In this document: positions 3 through 57,444 of the stretch, one piece after another
Numbering within the stretch: the stretch's first letter is position 1
Layout of the letters: each line of letters begins with the position of its first letter
Position numbers and translations under genes: made by a program
NCBI GenBank assembly: GCA_965205645.1
Contig: OZ242172.1
Location: 704,122 to 768,121, forward strand
Length of the DNA: 64,000 bases
Direction: 5' to 3'
From: Bdellovibrionales bacterium
GTDB lineage: Bacteria; Bdellovibrionota; Bdellovibrionia; Bdellovibrionales; UBA1609
The notes under the pieces: generated by a model
Databases searched by the model: none
Seen by the model: only the letters and a program-made list of their open reading frames with translations
What the model was told of the DNA's origin: nothing

Positions 3-1469
3 ATTCGTTTAGCTGAGCGGGGTTTTATTATTTCTGGGGATCATTATGATCGAACAAATAGTAGTAAGAACAAATTTAATAAAGCGGGTCGGAATGTTTT
101 TTTTCATAAGGGGAAATCTTATTTACCGGGTGAACGTTTAAGACAGCCTGGTTTAGCATTAGCATTAAGGCTTTTGAAAAAAGGGAAATCGGTATTTTAT
201 CGGGGTTTGATTGGAAGAGATATTGTTCGGGTTGTGCAAAAACATGGCGGGGTCATGCGCATGGAAGATTTGCACAAGTATCGGGTGCGTTGGCTTGATC
301 CGATCCGGTGGGATTTTGGTGGATATCAGTTTTACAGTATGCCTCTTCCGAGTTCTGGAGGAATTATTTTATTTAGGGCTACTCGTTTAATGGAACAGGT
401 GTTGGCACTTGGTAAACATAATTTGCAAAGTCGTGACATGGGAGCAGCGGAATCGCGGCGCCGCCGAGTCGGCGGGGACACTTTTGGTAAACATAATTTG
501 CAAAGTCGTGACATGCGTGCAAGGAATCGCGGCGCTGTAACCCCCCTTGGGGGGGTGGATGAGTGGCATTTATTAGCGGAGGTATTATCTGCTGCATTTC
601 GTCCGAGAGATCAGATGGGGGATTTGCCGGACGCAACTAAGTTATTAGAGCGTTGGTTATCGGTGAAGGATTTAGATCGTTTAGCTCGGAAAATTTCTTT
701 TCGGCGAATATTAAAATTACCTGCTTTGATCAGTAAACTTGATTTGCACAGTCGTGACATAGATGTACGGAATCGCGGCGCTGTAACCCTCCTTGGGGGG
801 GAGACGACACATTTTTCTATGATGGATGATAAGGGTCAGGTGGTATCTATGACGTTATCTTTGAACAGCAGTTATGGTTCTTATGTTGTGACGAATCGGT
901 ATGGCATTGTTTTGAACAATCAGATGGACGATTTTAATACGCATCCTGGTCGACCGAATCAATTTGGTTTGATTCAGGGTAAGAACAATTTAGTGCGTGC
1001 GCATCGTCGGCCTTTAAGTTCTATGAGTCCTACGATTGTGGAGAAGGATGGACGTGTGGTATTAGCGCTTGGTGCAGCAGGTGGTCCGATGATTATCAGT
1101 GCTGTATTTCAGGTATGTTATCGGTATTTGATTCAGGGTTTAGGTTTAGATCAGGCGGTACAGTTTCCTCGTGTACATCATCAATTTTTACCTCGTGTAT
1201 TGTATGTAGATAAGGATCGTTTTGCACCATTGGTATTAAAGCATTTAAAGAGGCGTGGGCACATTTTAGAGCAGAGGGATTTTATAGGGAGGGTGATGGC
1301 GGTTGGACGGCGGCGCCCTCCAAAAGGGAGTGATGGTGCCGCGATTGCGTCATCCTATGTTACTGTTTTGCAAGATAGTGACAATCGTGCAAGGAATCGC
1401 GTCGAAGTCACCCCCCTCTTGGAGGGGGCTTTTGATGCGCGTGGTGAAGGCGCAGTTGGTGGTTTCTGA
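3..1469 (+). CDS. ggt: gamma-glutamyltransferase, 5' end off-window, carrying three in-frame repeat insertion sites
   Basis: Frame 3 is open from base 3 (IRLAERGFIISGDHYD...) into the listed ORF 174..1469. GGT hallmarks are present: GGETTHFSMMD (nucleophile Thr), NNQMDDF, PLSSMSPT, GAAGGP. Confidence 0.9.
   Translation: MRLAERGFIISGDHYDRTNSSKNKFNKAGRNVFFHKGKSYLPGERLRQPGLALALRLLKKGKSVFYRGLIGRDIVRVVQKHGGVMRMEDLHKYRVRWLDPIRWDFGGYQFYSMPLPSSGGIILFRATRLMEQVLALGKHNLQSRDMGAAESRRRRVGGDTFGKHNLQSRDMRARNRGAVTPLGGVDEWHLLAEVLSAAFRPRDQMGDLPDATKLLERWLSVKDLDRLARKISFRRILKLPALISKLDLHSRDIDVRNRGAVTLLGGETTHFSMMDDKGQVVSMTLSLNSSYGSYVVTNRYGIVLNNQMDDFNTHPGRPNQFGLIQGKNNLVRAHRRPLSSMSPTIVEKDGRVVLALGAAGGPMIISAVFQVCYRYLIQGLGLDQAVQFPRVHHQFLPRVLYVDKDRFAPLVLKHLKRRGHILEQRDFIGRVMAVGRRRPPKGSDGAAIASSYVTVLQDSDNRARNRVEVTPLLEGAFDARGEGAVGGF
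411..557 (+). repeat. Two tandem units of the GC-rich modular hairpin repeat (head GGTAAACATAATTTGCAAAGTCGTGACATG at 411 and 486), inside ggt and in-frame
   Basis: The head is duplicated exactly. Unit 1 ends in the CCGCCG-AGT-CGGCGG hairpin and unit 2 in the CCCCCC-TT-GGGGGGG hairpin. Translated as GKHNLQSRDMGAAESRRRRVGGDTFGKHNLQSRDMRARNRGAVTPLGG. Confidence 0.9.
733..801 (+). repeat. Diverged single unit of the same repeat, in-frame in ggt, ending just before the catalytic Thr codons
   Basis: GTAAACTTGATTTGCACAGTCGTGACAT...GGAATCGCGGCGCTGTAACCCTCCTTGGGGGGG, translated as KLDLHSRDIDVRNRGAVTLLGG and followed by ETTH. Confidence 0.85.
1305..1428 (+). repeat. Composite repeat insertion near the ggt 3' end: an inverted partial unit plus a forward unit
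   Basis: Contains ...GCAAGATAGTGACAATCGTGCAAGGAATCGCGTCGAAGTCACCCCCCTCTTGGAGGGGG. It is preceded by a GC-rich segment with CCCTCCAAAAGGGAG. The insertion is absent from the ggt remnant at 6606..6713. Confidence 0.8.
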
Positions 1470-1471
1470 TT
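1428..1471 (+). repeat. Direct repeat A (att-like): the last 14 codons plus stop of ggt
   Basis: GCTTTTGATGCGCGTGGTGAAGGCGCAGTTGGTGGTTTCTGATT recurs at 5152..5195 and 6672..6715. Confidence 0.85.
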
Positions 1472-1648
1472 TTTTAATATTCTTTCAAAGAATCAGGTTA
1501 TTAATATTTCAGCGGATAAAATTTATTTTTCTTTATAAGTTTAGGTTCATGACACTTTAACAGGGTTGTTTTTAACTATTTTTGACAATAATCTATATAA
1601 GTCATCTTTTCTGTAATTGAACCTAAATTTAATAATATAACATCATAG

Positions 1649-2299
1649 TTAATCAGATAGTTCAAATAAAATAGCATTGAATGTTTGTGTAGTATTATTA
1701 TGCACAGGAATTGTTTTTACTTCTTCTAAGGAGATTATTTTATTTTCAATAGCTATTTTTAATTTTTGTTTTATCCATTCAGGAGGATAAGCACCACTTG
1801 AAATTAAGTTCTGAAAAGTTTTTCTAATATTAGTTATATATAATCCATTTTTCTCTAGTTTTTCTGAAGTATGTAAATTTTCGTAATGCAAAATTAATTG
1901 ATCGTTATTAGCAGTACGCCGGAAATTATCCGGAACAGTAATATGAAGTTTTACTGGACAATCCATTTTAAAATTCATCAAATAAAGTGCAGTTTCATAG
2001 GAAAACGTTCCTACTTGTTCACCGTTACGATTTCTAGCCCAAAGTTGAAAGAGAAAAAAATCTTTTTTTGAATCTGTTTGAATAAAATTAAGTTGATATA
2101 TTCCTCTTTTTACTCGTGACCAGTTTTCTCTTTTTAAATGATAAGAATGATTTCTAGAATCGATACCTGATTCTATTGCCTGTTGGCTAGTGAATAGACC
2201 TGATTGATTCTGAGCAATTTTTAATAAAGGATGATTAACTCTCAAAAATAGTTCCTTATTTGATATAATTATGTATTTTATGTTATATACTATCAACAA
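1649..2299 (-). CDS. AbiEi-like (type IV TA antitoxin-type) DNA-binding domain protein, no AbiEii partner nearby
   Basis: The N-terminal pattern GLFTSQQAIESGIDSRNHSYHLKRENWSRVKRGIYQL resembles the AbiEi_4-type wHTH. Judged by eye only. Confidence 0.45.
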   Translation of the reverse strand: MLIVYNIKYIIISNKELFLRVNHPLLKIAQNQSGLFTSQQAIESGIDSRNHSYHLKRENWSRVKRGIYQLNFIQTDSKKDFFLFQLWARNRNGEQVGTFSYETALYLMNFKMDCPVKLHITVPDNFRRTANNDQLILHYENLHTSEKLEKNGLYITNIRKTFQNLISSGAYPPEWIKQKLKIAIENKIISLEEVKTIPVHNNTTQTFNAILFELSD

Positions 2300-2399
2300 T
2301 AATTATAAAATAACATAATTTTTATGTATTTTATATATTTTTTTCTTGTTTTTTGCAATATATACTGGTAATTTCTATCGAAAAAGAGGGATGTCTATA

Positions 2400-3464
2400 A
2401 TGATAAAAAGCATAAAAATTCAAAATTATAAGCTTTTTAAGTCCTTTGACCTTCAGAATATTCCTCAAATTCTGTTAGTTGGTGGAAAAAATAATAGTGG
2501 AAAAACTAGCATTTTAGAAGCTGCATTTATGTCTTTGGATTGTGTGAATCCCAATATGTTTATCAGGCATCTTGGATGGAGAGGCTTGAATACTATTTCT
2601 AATGATGTAGAATCTTTATTTGGCCCTGTATATCATAATTTTGATTTAAACCAGCCTATAATTATTCAATATACTCTTAATTCAGCACAAAAAAAATTAA
2701 TATACAAGTTTCTGCCATTTGTTACACAACCTATTATCACTCGTAACGGAAGCAGTATTGAAATTAACGAGAAAGTTAGCAGATTTGGGGGGATAGAAAT
2801 TTCTTATTGGCTAGGAAGAGAACAATATCATAAGGCTTTGTTAAAACATGAAATAAAGGGACTTAATTTATCATCTGTGAATCAAGTGCTGAAATACAAT
2901 GAAGGTGTAAAAGCTGTGTTTCTTGCTTCAACTTTTTCAGATCATCAATCGGAAAATGCTCGTAGATATGGCGAGTTGGATAGAATAAATAATACAGCTA
3001 ATATTTTAACTGCATTAAAAATTTTAGAATCCAAACTTAATTCTTTGAGTGTGATACCAATGGGCAATAGATCAATGATATACGGAGATACGGGTCTCGG
3101 AAAAAAAATTCCCTTGGCACTGATGGGTCAAGGGATTAACAAACTTGTATCTATTCTTTTAGCAATTTCCAATGCTAATAATGGAGTTGTTTTTATAGAT
3201 GAGCTTGAAAATGGATTCCATCATTCTGTTCTATCCGATATATGGAAAGTTATTTCACACCATGCTATGTTTAATAATACACAAGTGATAGCTACTACAC
3301 ATAGTAGGGAGCTTATTCTAGGAGCAGTAGCAGGTATACCTGATAGGATTAGAGATAAATTTAAATATATGAGGATAGAAAGAAAAGGAAATGCATTTAA
3401 AACAAAACATTATGATTTTAATACTTTGAGTGCAGCTTTAGATTCTGAGTTAGAAATTCGGTAG
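2400..3464 (+). CDS. ABC/SMC-type AAA ATPase (AAA_15/AAA_21-like, OLD/AriA-like ATPase module)
   Basis: Walker A GGKNNSGKTS, signature-like MGQGINKL, Walker B VVFIDELENGFH, H-loop ATTHS. Start chosen at the ATG at 2400, 10 nt after GAGGG. The longest ORF starts at 2346. Confidence 0.75.
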   Translation: MIKSIKIQNYKLFKSFDLQNIPQILLVGGKNNSGKTSILEAAFMSLDCVNPNMFIRHLGWRGLNTISNDVESLFGPVYHNFDLNQPIIIQYTLNSAQKKLIYKFLPFVTQPIITRNGSSIEINEKVSRFGGIEISYWLGREQYHKALLKHEIKGLNLSSVNQVLKYNEGVKAVFLASTFSDHQSENARRYGELDRINNTANILTALKILESKLNSLSVIPMGNRSMIYGDTGLGKKIPLALMGQGINKLVSILLAISNANNGVVFIDELENGFHHSVLSDIWKVISHHAMFNNTQVIATTHSRELILGAVAGIPDRIRDKFKYMRIERKGNAFKTKHYDFNTLSAALDSELEIR

Positions 3465-3469
3465 ATTTA

Positions 3470-4123
3470 GTGAATCAGAAAAACAGATTTAGCATAAAAA
3501 TTACAGAAACAAAACTCCTTCTTGTAGAAGGAAAGGATGAAGAGTTTTTTTTTAAAACTTTCTTAAAAAAGAAAGAGATTTGTAATATTCAAATTATTTC
3601 TAGTGGTGGAAAAGATAAATTTAAGAACAAATTTCCAGCAATTAAAAACACTCCTGGCTTTGATGAAGTAACTTCATTGGCTGTCATCCATGATGCAGAT
3701 ACAAACGCTCAAGGGGCATTTCAAAGTATTTGTTCTGTATTAAAGAACAATAGCGTGGATTATCCTAAACAAATTTCATCATTTACTACTTCAAATTCCC
3801 TTAGAGTTGGGGTTTTTATTATTCCGGATGGAGGAAATCAAGGAAAGTTAGAATCTTTATGCTTATCTACAGTTGAGTCGGACAGTATTATAGAATGTAT
3901 TGATTCTTTTATGAGTTGTATAAAGCAGCAGTCACAGCTTGATATAAATAGATATAAAGAACCAAAAGATATTCATAAAGCTAGATGTAGGGCATTTCTC
4001 TCAGCTATGGAAGAGGATATTCCATCTTTGGGATTAGCTGCTGAAAAGGGTTATTGGAATTTAGATTCAGATAAATTGAATCCTATGTTGAATTTTTTAC
4101 AGGAATTAAATCGCAAAGAGTAA
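3470..4123 (+). CDS. Small Toprim-like partner protein (DUF4435/DUF3226-like)
   Basis: GTG start 6 nt after the ATPase stop. Contains LLLVEGKDEEFF (conserved Glu) and AVIHDADTN (DxD), the two Toprim acidic motifs, plus IIPDGGNQGKLESL. Confidence 0.55.
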   Translation: MNQKNRFSIKITETKLLLVEGKDEEFFFKTFLKKKEICNIQIISSGGKDKFKNKFPAIKNTPGFDEVTSLAVIHDADTNAQGAFQSICSVLKNNSVDYPKQISSFTTSNSLRVGVFIIPDGGNQGKLESLCLSTVESDSIIECIDSFMSCIKQQSQLDINRYKEPKDIHKARCRAFLSAMEEDIPSLGLAAEKGYWNLDSDKLNPMLNFLQELNRKE

Positions 4124-4148
4124 ATAATATATTAAAAAAAGCACTAAT

Positions 4149-5159
4149 ATGGAAATACCAAAGTTTTTATTATATGGTGAGACTGATCCAAAAACTCAAG
4201 AGAGAATACAGAAAACTCTTCCATGGAGAAGTTGGGATCAAGTCAGTGAAAAGGGAAAAGAAATTGCATTTCAGCAATTGATTAATGAAAATGTATTTCT
4301 ATACAAATCAGATCTTGTAGAAAATACGATAAAACGTTTGAATAATAAATTTTTAAGAAAACTATATGGAAAAAATTTACATTATTGTATGTCAGAATAT
4401 CTTGATGATTATCAAACAGCAGCAATGGGTGATTTTCGTGAAATTTTTACAACAGGAAAATCTGATGTGGTTTTTTATATGTTAAGTATATTTGCTGAAG
4501 GATTTATTAATCAGAATTATTTACGTCAAGCAAAAGAATCAAATAATAATGTAGATAGAAAAGAATATATAGAACAAGCTTTTATTCCATTTAATAAATT
4601 ACAGAACTGTTTGAATCATATTTTTGGACAATTTCATGTCAATCAACAGCTTACTTGGAGTGGTTTTATACCTCGTCAAGATGAAAGAATTTTAGATCAA
4701 ATCTATATTCCTACAATTAAATGTCTTTCCGATCCGAAATGGAGTTTAGTAAATAATGATTTAAGTAATATGTTTCAAGACTATAGAAATGGTAACTATC
4801 GGGACACTATTACTAAAGCTCATAATGTTTTACAAAGATTTCTTCAAATTTTTTTAAACAAGAGAAGTAAAAATGCTAAAGGAGAGTTAGGTAAGTTATT
4901 TTCGGAAGCTAAAAATAAAGGTGTTATATCAAATAATATTTTTATCATGAAAATCATTGAAGGTATTCAGAGCTTTGTATCTTCTGAAAGAGCAACTAAA
5001 AGCACAGCCAAACCTGCATTTAAAAATGTTACATCTGCAGATGCTTTGCTAGTAATGAATGCAGTTATGGTTTTTTTACAATACTGTTTAGAAGCAGATG
5101 CAACTGCATTGAAAGTATCTCCTGCGATTCATAAAGAGAGAGAACGGATGGCCTTTTGA
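4149..5159 (+). CDS. Hypothetical protein, third gene of the ATPase/Toprim cassette. Helical C-terminus with weak HEPN/Abi_C-like flavour.
   Basis: 336-aa ORF 25 nt downstream of the Toprim-like gene. YRDTITKAH fits Rx6H only loosely. Its stop codon (5157..5159) lies inside direct repeat B. Confidence 0.4.
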   Translation: MEIPKFLLYGETDPKTQERIQKTLPWRSWDQVSEKGKEIAFQQLINENVFLYKSDLVENTIKRLNNKFLRKLYGKNLHYCMSEYLDDYQTAAMGDFREIFTTGKSDVVFYMLSIFAEGFINQNYLRQAKESNNNVDRKEYIEQAFIPFNKLQNCLNHIFGQFHVNQQLTWSGFIPRQDERILDQIYIPTIKCLSDPKWSLVNNDLSNMFQDYRNGNYRDTITKAHNVLQRFLQIFLNKRSKNAKGELGKLFSEAKNKGVISNNIFIMKIIEGIQSFVSSERATKSTAKPAFKNVTSADALLVMNAVMVFLQYCLEADATALKVSPAIHKERERMAF

Positions 5160-5195
5160 TGCACGTGGTGAAGGCGCCGTTGGTGGTTTCTGATT
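5152..5195 (+). repeat. Direct repeat B (att-like copy of the ggt 3' end)
   Basis: CCTTTTGATGCACGTGGTGAAGGCGCCGTTGGTGGTTTCTGATT has 3 mismatches to copy A by hand alignment. Confidence 0.85.
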
Positions 5196-5264
5196 GTTTA
5201 TAGTTGTCTATTTAGTATTATTAAAAAATAGATTTGCGGTGGATGTATATTGTACAAACAGAAA

Positions 5265-6413
5265 TTACTTGATATTTTTCAGCCAGTCAGCAGCTGGCCA
5301 GATATGACATCCTGAGGTATGTAGCCTTTGTCGGCTACAAGATCTAACTAGCTGTATTTTTTTTACAGGATCAGGTATATCTTTAGTAAATAAATCAAAA
5401 TGAGATGTGAGTTTTTCATCTTTCCATTTAGTCTCTATCATTTGAAATGGCTTATTGTCTTTTGTGATTAAGAAATCTATTTCTTTTTTATCTTTATTTT
5501 TTAAGTAATAAAGTTGTCTTTTTTCTCCATAGCAGTCTTCTTTAAAGTGGTTATTTTTTAGTAAGGCGCAGGCAACAAGGTTTTCGAATCGCGCGCCTTT
5601 ATCTGAAACTTGAGCTATATCGTAAAAATAATACTTAGGCTGTTTGCGGATAGATTTTCTGATGTTTTTATAATAGGGTTGGATTTTAAAAATAAAATAA
5701 AATCCTTCTAATAGGTTCAGCATTTTTTTCACTGTTTTACCATCGCATTGTAGGATTTTTGATAAATTTTCGTATTGAATAGCGCTACCAACGGATGTTT
5801 TTAGTAACTCTAATAAGGTTTCTAATTGAGAAATTCTTTGGTATTTATCTAGCTCCAGCATATCTTCTTTTAGAATGGCTGAAGTGTGCGTGTTTGCCCA
5901 TCTTCTATAAAACTGCTTTGATCCTTTAAGATATGGTTCTGGAAATCCTCCAATTTCTAGCAGTCGGGTGAGTATTTGCTCTGGGTCTGCTTTTTTATGT
6001 ATTTGGCAAATTTCTTTTACGTCTAAAGGATGTAGGCGAAAAGGGAAAAAGCAGCCAGCTAAGGAATCTCCTGTTCTTTTATAGGCTTCAAGTCTGGCGC
6101 TACCTGTTACTATAATACCTTGTTTAAGTTCTGTTTTTTCATATAAAGCTTTTAGCCATTGTTTCCAGTTTTTTTTAATATGTAGTTCATCAAAAACTAG
6201 GTACTTGCAATAAGGATTCCATTCTTGTCGTTCTACCATTAGGCGGTCTTTGGCATCAAAGTAGTTAAAATAATCAAATTTTACTGAGGATGGGTGTAGG
6301 TGTTTTGAAAGCATTGTTTTTCCGGATTGTCGAGGACCGGTTATAATTAAAATCTTTTCTTTTAAATCTTTTTTTAAAAAGGGCTCTAGGTAGCGAGGTT
6401 TGTATTTGTTCAT
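5265..6413 (-). CDS. AAA ATPase of the AAA_14/DUF4143 type
   Basis: Walker A ITGPRQSGKTML and Walker B-like YLVFDELH. A C-terminal EIDFLI...IETKW module is typical of DUF4143 proteins. Paralog at 41867..43030. Confidence 0.75.
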   Translation of the reverse strand: MNKYKPRYLEPFLKKDLKEKILIITGPRQSGKTMLSKHLHPSSVKFDYFNYFDAKDRLMVERQEWNPYCKYLVFDELHIKKNWKQWLKALYEKTELKQGIIVTGSARLEAYKRTGDSLAGCFFPFRLHPLDVKEICQIHKKADPEQILTRLLEIGGFPEPYLKGSKQFYRRWANTHTSAILKEDMLELDKYQRISQLETLLELLKTSVGSAIQYENLSKILQCDGKTVKKMLNLLEGFYFIFKIQPYYKNIRKSIRKQPKYYFYDIAQVSDKGARFENLVACALLKNNHFKEDCYGEKRQLYYLKNKDKKEIDFLITKDNKPFQMIETKWKDEKLTSHFDLFTKDIPDPVKKIQLVRSCSRQRLHTSGCHIWPAADWLKNIK

Positions 6414-6449
6414 AGTATATAAGATATATTATCCGAGGGGGTATGTCTA

Positions 6450-6511
6450 GACTATTTCGGATATAACTACGAAAAAGTACGGACTATTTCGGAGATATCT
6501 CCGAAATAGTC
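6450..6511. promoter_or_regulatory. Putative operator: perfect 30-bp palindrome plus an extra half-site upstream of the DUF4143 ATPase gene
   Basis: GACTATTTCGGAGATATCTCCGAAATAGTC at 6482..6511 is its own reverse complement. A third half-site GACTATTTCGGATAT lies at 6450..6464. The site is 37-98 nt upstream of the ATG at 6413. Confidence 0.5.
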
Positions 6512-6605
6512 TTTCTCATTAGTGGGTATGGAAAGTGGAATATATTTGTTATTTTCATATATTGCTATTTAGATTCATGAGAGCAGGTGTGATGTGGTTA
6601 TATGC

Positions 6606-6713
6606 CAGAGCGGATTAGAGAATACTCTGGGAATAAGGTTTAGTTTGCATGTGGTGGCAATTTTAGAAGGGGCTTTTGATGCGCGTGGTGAGGGTGCAGT
6701 CAGTAGTTTATAA
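6606..6713 (+). pseudogene. ggt: Displaced, diverged 3' remnant of ggt without the repeat
   Basis: Reads ...LHVVAILEGAFDARGEGAVSSL* in frame. The live gene has ...GRVMAV[38-aa repeat insert]LEGAFDARGEGAVGGF*. There is no upstream ORF. Confidence 0.65.
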
Positions 6714-6715
6714 TT
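6672..6715 (+). repeat. Direct repeat C (att-like)
   Basis: The first 20 nt are identical to copy A. There are 7 mismatches in the remaining 24 by hand alignment. Confidence 0.8.
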
Positions 6716-6725
6716 GGATAAAGTG

Positions 6726-8003
6726 TTATCTATATATCACATGAGGATGAGATACTGTGCTAGGTGTACTTTTCTCCCAGTCATCTAAATCTACCGCATC
6801 GTCACATTCATGGAATACAAAAAATTGATCTTTATCAGACAATTCCCCCGTACTAGATATATGATCCGGTAATGAATAATATTCACAGTCAGTGCCTTCT
6901 TCTCCTCCGACATCTGGATCTCCGCGGCTGCCATTGGATTCCACAAATTTATTAAATTCTTCTTCTGTATTCCATTCTCTTACAACTAAATGGATACGAT
7001 GTATCACCTCATGCGCATTATCCAGGCATGACCAGGTAAAATACGGATATCCTTTAAATTGTGTGCCTGGGTGATTTGGCAATGGATCTGTTTCATATAG
7101 TTTAGGTAAGTTATCTAAATTAAAATCTTCTATATCTTCATAGTAATTAGCTACGACAAATGAAGGGCCACTGATTCTTAAACTGCCTCTTGTTGGATCT
7201 CCACCATCGTAAAAGCTTTCAATGCTTGGTATTTCATAAGTTTCAATGTGGCCATCTCTTTCCGTACTAGTGACTAGTGTTAGTGGAATTCCTAAATCAT
7301 TTCTAGCGTTCCAGTTAACGCGGCCTAGGCCTCCGAGGCATTGTTCCAGGCTTTCTCCCCAGGAACCATCTGATTGATCTTCTCCTGAAACTGCGTAATC
7401 ACCAATACAACAATTAGCTAAGTCATCATTTCTATCACTTAGATCGTATCCACATAAATTTTCTATTTCAGCAGAGCATGCTCCTCGTCCTGGTCCATCA
7501 GTGCAATATCTATCTTCTGTTTCTGCATTATCTCCAGTACCTATTGTGCGTTCATCTTTATGAATAATTCTCGGTCCATAACCAGCATTTTGATTAAAGT
7601 GCCAGGGTACTTGAAATCCCAGGTAGTCACACATACCAGGCGGCACATTATATTCAATAGGGGTTGGATGTCCCCATAGATCCCCTTCTATTTTTTCTAG
7701 TTGGCAAAATATATCTTCACTGGATTCTTGATCAATCGGGATTTTACAGTCTGTACCAGGCCCTGCATCTAGCTCATACAGTGCATGTTGTAAAAAGCTA
7801 TGTCCTGCATAGTTGTCTCTGGCTAAGCGAATATAAAAGAATCTATCGTTTGGAATAGATCCTTCATTCTCATCCCATGAAGGTAGTTGAGAAAATGAAG
7901 AGAAGTCACTTGATCCAAAAACATTGAGCTTGCTACAACCCATGAAGAAGGATAAAGCCAAGCCTGTTACGTATAATGAAATCAATAGAACTTTCAGACG
8001 CAT
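6726..8003 (-). CDS. Acidic Cys-rich putative lipoprotein, unknown function
   Basis: Signal peptide with lipobox (LSFFMGC). 425-aa intact ORF rich in D/E/C/G. Confidence 0.6.
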   Translation of the reverse strand: MRLKVLLISLYVTGLALSFFMGCSKLNVFGSSDFSSFSQLPSWDENEGSIPNDRFFYIRLARDNYAGHSFLQHALYELDAGPGTDCKIPIDQESSEDIFCQLEKIEGDLWGHPTPIEYNVPPGMCDYLGFQVPWHFNQNAGYGPRIIHKDERTIGTGDNAETEDRYCTDGPGRGACSAEIENLCGYDLSDRNDDLANCCIGDYAVSGEDQSDGSWGESLEQCLGGLGRVNWNARNDLGIPLTLVTSTERDGHIETYEIPSIESFYDGGDPTRGSLRISGPSFVVANYYEDIEDFNLDNLPKLYETDPLPNHPGTQFKGYPYFTWSCLDNAHEVIHRIHLVVREWNTEEEFNKFVESNGSRGDPDVGGEEGTDCEYYSLPDHISSTGELSDKDQFFVFHECDDAVDLDDWEKSTPSTVSHPHVIYR

Positions 8004-15994: not shown

Positions 15995-16449
15995 TGGTTA
16001 GTGCTATTCTCATTGGTATTTGGTACATTCGTTTTATTCATATTATCTGGAGCTGTGTTTTTTATTTTACTTGTTTCTACGTCTGGTGTGTTCTGGTTAG
16101 ATGGTTTTGTGTCTTCCGCTGTATTACTTTTTACTTTAGCATCAGCAGGAGCTGAATTTGAAGAGGTGCTGTCTGTCGTCTCAGGCGCATTAGTATATTG
16201 ATCTATCACACTGGTGTTTTTATCTGAACTTAAAGCAGCTAGATAAATGGAAGTAAAGGCAAATATAATAGCCGTCCATTTAGTCACACCGACTAAAAAT
16301 TGATTCGCGCCAGAACTGCCAAATAAACTCTTTGTTCCTCCACCTCCAATAATACCAAAAGCTCCGCCTCCTTTTGGATCTTGAAGTAAAATAAAAATTA
16401 TCATAATAAAAGAGACAATAATATGCACAATGGAAAGAAAGGTAAACAT
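15991..16449 (-). CDS. secG: Preprotein translocase subunit SecG with a low-complexity C-terminal tail
   Basis: ILLQDPKGGGAFGIIGGGGTKSLFGSSGANQFL is the SecG signature. Confidence 0.9.
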   Translation of the reverse strand: MFTFLSIVHIIVSFIMIIFILLQDPKGGGAFGIIGGGGTKSLFGSSGANQFLVGVTKWTAIIFAFTSIYLAALSSDKNTSVIDQYTNAPETTDSTSSNSAPADAKVKSNTAEDTKPSNQNTPDVETSKIKNTAPDNMNKTNVPNTNENSTNQ

Positions 16450-16483
16450 TATCCTTAGTTAAAGAAACTTTTACCCCAAAAGT

Positions 16484-16990
16484 CAACCCCCCCCTCAAAA
16501 GGGGTAACTTCGCCGCGATTCCTTGCACGCATGTCACAATTTTGCTTATAAAGTTCGTCAAGTAAGTAAGTGTCCGCCCCCCAAAGGGGGTAACTTCGCC
16601 GCGATTCCTTGCACGCATGTCACAATTTTGCTTATAAAGTTCGTCAAGTAAGTAAGTGTCCGCCCCCCAAAGGGGGTAACTTCGCCGCGATTCCTTGCAC
16701 GCATGTCACAATTTTGCTTATAAAGTTCGTCAAGTAAGTAAGTGTCCGCCCCCAAAGGGGGTAACTTCGCCGCGATTCCTTGCACGCATGTCACAATTTT
16801 TCACATAAAGTTTGCCAAGTAAGTAAGTGTCCGCCCCCCAAAGGGGGTAACTTCGCCGCGATTCCTTGCACGCATGTCACAATTTTTCACATAAAGTTTG
16901 CCAAGTAAGTAAGTGTCCGCCCCCCAAAGGGGGTAACTTCGCCGCGATTCTGCTGTACGCATGTCACTCCTTGTAAATCATGTTTATCAG
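16484..16990 (-). repeat. Tandem array of 6 units of the hairpin repeat, period 86 bp (one unit is 85 bp), co-oriented with secG
   Basis: The TGTCCGCC landmark falls at 16571, 16657, 16743, 16828 and 16914. Monomer: GTCCGCCCCCCAAAGGGGGTAACTTCGCCGCGATTCCTTGCACGCATGTCACAATTTTGCTTATAAAGTTCGTCAAGTAAGTAAGT. The last two units switch to a TTTTTCACATAAAGTTTGCCAAG linker. Confidence 0.92.
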
Positions 16991-17151
16991 TTGTCTGCGG
17001 CGACCTCGCCATGCTCTGCGGCAAAATGCATATCTGAGCTTTTGAGTGAATTTTTTAAATGGGAAAACAAATATTTACACTGTTGCAAATTATGCTTGTA
17101 AATATCCGATTGTATGTTGAGTTTTGGAATAGCTTATTATTAAATAAGGCA

Positions 17152-57197: not shown

Positions 57198-57204
57198 GTA
57201 ATAC

Positions 57205-57437
57205 TGGCAGGTTGCCGGTGACATTTATTTGTAAACATGATTTGCAAAGTTGTAACATGGGAGCAGCGGACTCGCGGCGAAACCACTCTCCCTTTGAGGG
57301 AGCGGCGCCGCCGAGTCGGCGGAGACACTTTTGGTAAACATAATTTGCAAAGCAGTGACATGGGAGCAGCGGACTCGCGGCGAAACCACTCTCCCTTTGA
57401 GGGAGGGGCGAAATCACTCTCCCTTTGAGGGAGGAGG
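57205..57437 (+). repeat. Two forward repeat units filling the murJ-ybeY spacer
   Basis: GTAAACATGATTTGCAAAGTTGTAACATGGGAGCAGCGGACTCGCGGCGAAACCACTCTCCCTTTGAGGGAG..., repeated from 57326. CTCCC-TTTGA-GGGAG hairpins occur 3 times. The last G-arm abuts GGAGG, 7 nt before the ybeY ATG. Confidence 0.9.
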
Positions 57438-57444
57438 TTAGGAA

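Follow-up and report, generated by a model that had tools for sequence, protein, structure and literature searches.

Organization of the ggt 3' locus

The window, the 64,000-nt stretch of DNA that was analysed, comes from an uncultured Bdellovibrionales lineage and opens within the live gene for gamma-glutamyltranspeptidase (ggt; 1–1469, + strand; Pfam PF01019, E = 3e-90; 100% match to P0001), the 5' part of which is cut by the window start. The locus continues in the order of live ggt end, islet A (1477–5145), a second copy of the ggt end (copy 2; 5146–5200, + strand), islet B (5201–6650), a third copy (copy 3; 6651–6720, + strand), and chromosome. Copy 1, at 1419–1476 (+ strand), is the functional gene end and comprises the last 16 codons, the stop codon, and approximately 8 nt, and immediately upstream of it a GC-rich palindromic repeat element lies in frame in ggt (1308–1418, + strand). 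The chromosomal flank beyond the islets begins with a convergent lipoprotein gene (6726–8003, − strand; ORF list), which starts 13 nt past the stop codon of copy 3, and rplS lies next beyond it (ORF list). The region upstream of the window ggt was viewed through the contig of a sister strain only.

Gene content of the islets

Analysis with Pfam and PADLOC showed that islet A contains the genes for an AbiEi-like regulator (1649–2299, − strand), an AbiLi/PDC-M38A-type ATPase (2346–3464), and a DUF3226/PDC-M38B TOPRIM protein (3470–4123). These defence genes are followed in the ORF list by a 336-aa ORF (4149–5159), which lies in a strain-specific segment of 1,021 nt (4132–5152, + strand; blastn of the window against the sister strain). 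This ORF is present in the window and absent from the sister, and its matches, to the exonuclease I C-terminal domain and the STM4504/CBY_0614 family, are below the curated cut-offs. Islet B consists of the gene for a PDC-S01/DUF4143 AAA+ ATPase (5265–6413, − strand; Pfam, and PADLOC PDC-S01 with E = 6e-54) and its upstream region. The latter includes a perfect 30-nt palindrome, GACTATTTCGGAGATATCTCCGAAATAGTC (6482–6511), with a partial copy at 6449–6470. The palindrome is 100% conserved in the sister strain and is probably an operator. At the locus of a distant homologue (L084), DNA similarity also continues through the region upstream of the ATPase gene.

Searches with Pfam, NCBIfam, and PADLOC found no recombinase among the ORFs that fill both islets, and the result was the same in the sister strain, where the 10 kb upstream of ggt also contained no integrase or serine recombinase. 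Neither islet has a recombinase beside an att site, the arrangement of an integrase-bearing genomic island.

The islet-B type ATPase is 66–77% identical across Bdellovibrionales genomes whose ggt is only 44–52% identical (L084, L085), and its homologues are often found beside further DUF4143 genes, transposase fragments, and AbiEi genes. Its distribution suggests that this candidate defence gene has spread horizontally. Since these homologues (66–77% identity) in other Bdellovibrionales sit at unrelated loci with no ggt end nearby, islet B is not demonstrably ggt-targeting.

Direct repeats of the ggt end

A repeat search grouped three copies of the ggt end in one family, D14 (1426–1476; 5150–5200, 92% identity; 6670–6720, 80%), and a three-way alignment showed that the copies are in register and have a common right boundary approximately 8 nt beyond the stop codon. 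Direct repeats of the 3' end of the target gene accordingly occupy 1419–1476, 5146–5200, and 6663–6720. Copies 1 and 2 have near-identical right parts and unrelated left parts, and copy 3 differs throughout. The live ggt translation reads ...GRVMAVGRRRPPKGS...VEVTPLLEGAFDARGEGAVGGF before the stop codon, its whole tail being ...GRVMAVGRRRPPKGSDGAAIASSYVTVLQDSDNRARNRVEVTPLLEGAFDARGEGAVGGF, and copy 2, the left side of which is truncated in the window strain, ends in PFDARGEGAVGGF.

The first-pass annotation had described copy 3 as a displaced ggt 3' remnant in which the junction where the element was inserted is preserved empty, and the remnant and live-gene strings that it quoted are present where it placed them; copy 2, a second remnant at approximately 5146–5200, was omitted from it. 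The frame through 6561–6713 reads ...RFSLHVVAILEGAFDARGEGAVSSL and then stops. At the DNA level, GGTGGCAATT (6653–6662) is followed by TTAGAAGGGGC from 6663, the pair GGTGGCAATT/TTAGAAGGGGC spanning 6653–6673, and in the live gene GATGGCGGTT (1295–1304) is followed by 114 nt (1305–1418) and TTGGAGGGGGC (1419–1429). The core of the claimed remnant proved solid. Secure homology of copy 3 covers 6663–6720 (LEGAFDARGEGAVSSL, stop codon at 6711–6713, and approximately 7 nt beyond), a segment which is approximately 80% identical to the live ggt 3' end at 1419–1476. In a blastn comparison, 6666–6716 matched the live ggt end of the sister strain with E = 8e-8, and a profile of the 62 C-terminal residues of 119 ggt homologues recognized the frame of copy 3 with E = 1.7e-6 and that of copy 2 with E = 4e-5. 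On this evidence, 6663–6720 repeats the terminal ~17 codons of ggt in direct orientation without being functional, and copy 2 is the second repeat of this kind. A similarity due to low-complexity chance or convergence, not to derivation from ggt, would have nothing in its favor beyond the shortness of the match, and we consider its probability negligible: 51–58 nt match at 80–92% identity three times in register, ending at the stop codon, the profile match is in the correct frame, and the repeats are conserved in the sister strain. This origin of the ggt-end copies was rejected on the D14 repeats, the profile E-value, and the blastn match to the sister.

When the differences between copies that are common to both strains were classified, four of six were synonymous (26% expected; P = 0.04). 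This excess fits gene ends that would still have been in use as they diverged, as att-borne ones are expected to be. It is weak, and two of the four synonymous changes may instead have been caused by the palindromic element.

Comparison with the sister strain

The sister strain comes from one other metagenome and was defined by P0121, which belongs to the 90% cluster of the window ggt, and P0123, from the cluster of the islet-B ATPase. Its contigs L002 and L003 have the same architecture as the window at 89–97% nucleotide identity (blastn). Its live ggt also carries the element, with a terminal hairpin that is 3 nt different (CCCCCCTCGAGGGGG; protein TPLEGAFD). An empty allele of the live gene, sought among close sisters, was not found in the 90% ggt cluster, both members of which are occupied; the next homologue, the nearest non-sister ggt, is 52% identical.

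Copy 3 of the sister reads CAT GTG GTT GGC CTC CTC AAT GGG GTT TTA GAA GGA GCT... and translates to HVVGLLNGVLEGAFDASGEGAVSGL before the stop codon. Its loop segment, HVVGLLNGVLEGAFD, is of normal length and free of the element. When this loop, VVG-LLNGV-LEGAFD, was set against the family pattern AV[G/S]xxK[D/E]G[L/F]LEGAFD, it had the family Gly after the strand and N-G-hydrophobic before LEG. In profile alignments, copy 3 of the sister reached hmm position 44 and copy 2, which reads FGKKFLEKAFDVRGEGAVGGF before its stop codon, reached hmm position 43, so that both sister remnants appear to extend into the loop. Aligned with the sister, copy 3 of the window lacks 12 nt of the loop at exactly the point where the first-pass annotation had drawn the empty junction. 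The tidy window junction VVAI/LEG thus appears to be the product of a later 12-nt deletion. What stands of the proposed empty site is that the remnant is element-free and, as seen in the sister strain, covers the loop. The comparison is also a caution, as a neat ‘empty site’ taken from one genome can stem from a secondary deletion, and it was the sister strain that showed the true loop.

In copy 2, the 1,021-nt segment of the window replaces 63 nt of the sister (L003 reverse complement 2211–2273), including the loop and the L-E codons, and the stop codon of the 336-aa ORF sits inside this copy. Beyond copy 3, the lipoprotein encoded at 6726–8003 (− strand) is approximately 70% identical in amino acids to its counterpart at L003 8334–9677; between the strains, rplS is 99% and ggt approximately 97% identical. 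The lipoprotein, which has no family match, evolves fast and is possibly surface-exposed.

The palindromic element in live ggt

The repeat in the live gene had been proposed to be a secondary insertion, and the homologues bear this out. All 119 lack the element and have 5–10 residues between AV and LEGAFD, typically AV[S/G]xxK[D/E]G[L/F]LEGAFD, and the profile splits the live gene into hmm 1–42 (...GRVMAVGRR) and hmm 46–62 (LLEGAFD...). Alignment with solved GGT structures ends at ...GRVMAV, so that the insertion falls within the ~24 C-terminal residues. We take the site, by homology, to be the VGPDGE turn of Escherichia coli GGT. The live structure can be written as AVG, element, and (L)LEGAFD, the element lying in the loop of the C-terminal beta-hairpin. 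From repeat alignment, fold, and absence in homologues, 1308–1418 is a lineage-specific secondary insertion. The remnants add little on this point, since the homologues already make the insertion obvious.

The boundaries and the mode of insertion differ from those first proposed. When 1285–1372 was aligned to other repeat copies, the left boundary being set by the reverse complement of the copy at 57200–57440, element-derived sequence began at 1308 (CGGCGGCGCC...), right after GGA (Gly), and not at 1305. Furthermore, the usual 4–6 loop codons are missing from the live gene, so that the insertion was a replacement and not a clean drop-in of 114 nt into an intact site; about 15–21 nt of the loop appear to have been replaced.

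The segment 1313–1430 folds as one long imperfect hairpin (z = −3.3), and the 7-bp terminal hairpin CCCCCTC/GAGGGGG extends to 1428, where it overlaps the host L-E-G codons. At these codons, TTA GAA GG(A/G) GCT is found in every remnant of both strains and in the distant relative L001, TTG GAG GGG GCT in the live gene of the window (1419–1428 = TTGGAGGGGG), and CTC GAG GGG GCT in that of the sister. Both A>G changes (TTA GAA to TTG GAG) are synonymous, and together they exactly complete the terminal stem of the element. Since the live TTG GAG matches the terminal hairpin, the host codons were either overwritten or reshaped. The remnants are the only element-free sequences of this ggt locus in the lineage, and it is they that show that loop codons were replaced and two synonymous positions reshaped. 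When a hairpin resembling the element end was sought in the remnants, no stable fold was obtained.

The first-pass annotation had suggested that a host G-run was recruited as the 3' arm of the last hairpin, and that similar runs should be looked for at other junctions. At two other insertion sites in ggt, the element finishes with a G-run of its own (...CCCCCCTTGGGGGGG followed by GTG GAT GAG TGG, and ...CCTCCTTGGGGGGG followed by GAG ACG ACA), after which the host sequence resumes. Recruitment at 1308–1418 is therefore plausible but not demonstrated, and the 3' arm at 1422–1428 is at least as likely to have been supplied or reshaped by the element.

The same GC-rich modular palindromic repeat has four in-frame insertions in ggt, the window sites being 400–560, 730–805, and 1308–1428. 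As a result of the four insertions, which stand out as separate blocks in an alignment, the ggt protein has 723 aa compared with approximately 550 aa in relatives. At 784 aa, the ggt protein of the sister (L002 10001–12355) is longer still owing to additional repeat units at the first site, indicating that the copy number varies between strains. Among 83 loci scanned for motifs of the repeat family, only the sister contig L002 had matches, apart from a single 12-mer match in L049, leaving 81–82 without a match. Elsewhere in the window, ~7 units of this family are arranged in tandem with an 86-nt period (16403–17036), oriented oppositely to the ggt copies, so that the family comprises scattered single units as well as arrays.

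Extent of copy 3 across the insertion point

The literal form of the empty-site proposal is that copy 3 is the original 3' end of this gene and GCAATT/TTAGAA the pristine site into which 114 nt were cleanly inserted. The match between VVAI of the remnant and VMAV of the live gene covers 9 of 12 nt in frame and is the best junction-anchored match in 1100–1418, with P = 0.003, and the independently mapped left boundary of the element (1308) is only 3 nt from 1305. That P value presupposes a junction chosen beforehand. When the junction was free to move by ±15 nt, P rose to 0.10 (shuffles) or 0.04 (genomic decoys), which makes the upstream extension of the remnant marginal, and over the whole range it was 0.53; the G/T-rich context (GTGGTGGC/GTGATGGCGGTTGG) tolerates shifted registers. 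In the profile alignment, the window remnant is first matched at hmm position 45 (AILEG), and the strand before it is not included. With VVAI directly against LEG, the loop would have zero residues, and none of the 119 homologues has fewer than five between AV and LEG. Finally, copy 3 of the sister is 12 nt longer and has a normal loop, so the window junction is secondary and VVAI/LEG is not the empty site. Taken together, these results make the literal reading very unlikely.

A local pairwise alignment of 1200–1520 against 6520–6760, of the kind that had been proposed as a check, aligned only the 51–58-nt core and nothing reliable upstream. A longer upstream alignment chain, obtained with cheap gap extension, was meaningless and was discarded. 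Homology of 6651–6662 (GTG GTG GCA ATT) is possible, and this segment is possibly the remainder of the strand and loop after the 12-nt deletion; for 6606–6650 there is none. Just left of the element insertion point, all copies have (G/T)TT GG(A/C) in common, each remnant has 5–7 matching bases in flank tests anchored on the right (P = 0.02–0.12 each), and 5–9 when the junction-anchored match is counted in. The remnants therefore seem to be element-free versions of the site that overlap its left side by only ~6–12 nt. In this overlap, HVV(G) = MAV(G) appears to be a better register than the VVAI = VMAV of the first-pass annotation, from which it is one codon away.

Origin of the repeats and islets

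The best-supported model, to which we give about an even chance, is a tandem accretion of islets at an att-like ggt 3' end. Two small defence islets would have been added one after another at a site reaching from the loop of the ggt C-terminal beta-hairpin to approximately 8 nt past the stop codon. Each arrival would have restored a functional ggt end and pushed the earlier end downstream, and, just as decayed att-flanked elements do, the islets would have lost their recombinase or depend on one acting in trans. Under this model, the attP of the incoming islet, and not this ggt, would be the source of the left part of each remnant. Site-specific integration, a succession of events, and the identity of the native copy are what we infer from the arrangement of the locus: the three copies align in register, end at a shared right boundary, and have unrelated left flanks, the spaces between them are fully taken by defence genes with no recombinase, and the sister strain has the same architecture with remnants whose ggt-like left parts are longer. 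In addition, a relative whose ggt is 50% identical (L001/L005) has the same terminal segment 3.5 times with a 164-nt period, starting at the loop codons KDGLLEG. The retention of putative att repeats together with the absence of a recombinase is the state of a decayed att-flanked element (CIME). An element carrying the attP was searched for with the core pattern, and the metagenome and viral contig collections gave no match to the exact patterns. None of 27 related ggt loci had an integrase-bearing island at the ggt end within 10-kb flanks, and in the other ggt loci compared, neither the lipoprotein gene nor rplS, the possible ancestral neighbours of ggt, was found within 10 kb of it, so that copy 3 is no more than a candidate for the native end.

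The main alternative for the repeats is a local tandem duplication of the ggt end, as in L001, with the defence genes later inserted in the spacers by unrelated means and no site-specific integration. In L001, the 3.5 units begin at the loop codons KDGLLEG and follow one another without intervening islets, genes of the islet type are found elsewhere without ggt ends, and the islets lack a recombinase, all of which would agree with such an origin. It would, however, need two independent insertions exactly between copies, and on the left the three copies have no more than a few bases in common. Copy 3 also differs mainly at synonymous sites, which is unexpected for duplicates that decay freely in situ, whereas the copies in L001 differ mostly non-synonymously (D>N, G>E) and look like the outcome of a different, younger process. 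We therefore regard tandem duplication as rather unlikely.

In L001 (9597–10153; same genome as L005), the last ~20 ggt codons start the 164-nt tandem array, the 3.5 copies of which have 91% identity. Each unit consists of a ggt-end copy and a spacer of ~85 nt that opens with a second partial copy (AAAAGACGGCTTGTTAGAA), with no genes between, and the array has no Rfam match.

A more far-reaching reading is the following. The terminal ~60–80 nt of ggt would be the att site of a previously undescribed family of miniature, recombinase-less defence islets of Bdellovibrionales that are mobilised in trans, and such integration would also have left the 164-nt array of L001 behind as a scar. As a separate matter, insertion of the palindromic element would proceed by hairpin- or microhomology-guided replacement, overwriting host codons with a coding-compatible terminal repeat. 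If true, such a codon-overwriting insertion would explain the change of TTA GAA to TTG GAG; as a whole, we hold this combination to be unlikely.

The first-pass annotation had also offered two views of the timing, that the element was inserted after the islets displaced the original 3' end or that the copies evolved separately. Window and sister are alike in having the islets, the two remnants, and an occupied live gene, and with no polymorphism between them the order of events cannot be derived. Moreover, the left parts of the remnants would come from attP under tandem accretion, so that the absence of the element from them is uninformative on the time of insertion. Separate evolution of the copies is the safer statement.

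Relation to known systems

There are good descriptions of decayed att-flanked elements and of elements that accrete in tandem at a target gene 3' end (PMC5704250, PMC3146451). They include the CIMEs (cis-mobilizable elements) among the ICESt1/ICESt3-related islands at fda of Streptococcus thermophilus (PMC5704250). Like these, the ggt islets have direct repeats of the target gene 3' end at their borders, lie several in tandem, have no integration or transfer genes of their own, and leave a functional gene end with displaced copies downstream. Unlike them, they are at ggt and in an uncultured Bdellovibrionales lineage, they have no known related integrase-bearing element, they are only 1.5–3.7 kb long with defence genes only, and they are no more than putatively mobile.

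In Dehalococcoides, tandem genomic islands at ssrA are accompanied by multiple direct repeats of the ssrA 3' end (PMC3146451). There too, an array is made up of islands that each terminate in a copy of the 3' end of a single gene, an integration module is missing from some of them, and the sequence just upstream of each repeat cannot be aligned to the gene, which marks the crossover. In Dehalococcoides, the repeat spans 20 bp, taken from an RNA gene, and a serine recombinase (DsiB) is present in most of the islands (PMC3146451), whereas the ggt repeat is approximately 58 nt or more of a protein-coding end and the ggt islets have no such gene. If the islets integrated at this site, ggt would be added to the protein genes whose 3' end is a landing pad for islands, and the locus would present kilobase-sized defence islets stacked at the ggt end in an uncultured lineage of predatory bacteria.

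SCC and pseudo-SCC composite islands of staphylococci sit at the 3' end of rlmH (orfX); they have integration-site repeats of ~15–20 bp and known recombinases, encoded by ccr, and experiments have demonstrated their excision. The ggt islets resemble them in lying at the last codons of a housekeeping gene with the reading frame preserved and in having the integration-site sequences repeated between tandem elements, and some SCC elements also lack ccr. They differ from SCC in their longer repeats and in that SCC has known recombinases and demonstrated excision.

For the palindromic element, the nearest parallel is formed by the Rickettsia palindromic elements (RPEs), which were reportedly described by Ogata et al. 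in 2000 as inserted in frame in protein-coding genes. Like an RPE, 1308–1418 is a dispersed palindromic repeat of ~110 nt that lies in frame in a surface loop of a conserved enzyme and is absent from orthologues, and several insertions occur within one gene. The likeness is one of analogy: the ggt element belongs to an unrelated sequence family in a different host phylum, is GC-rich in an AT-rich genome, is modular, and also forms tandem arrays. A further difference from RPEs is that loop codons of ggt were lost to the insertion and that the terminal hairpin extends over conserved codons of the host.
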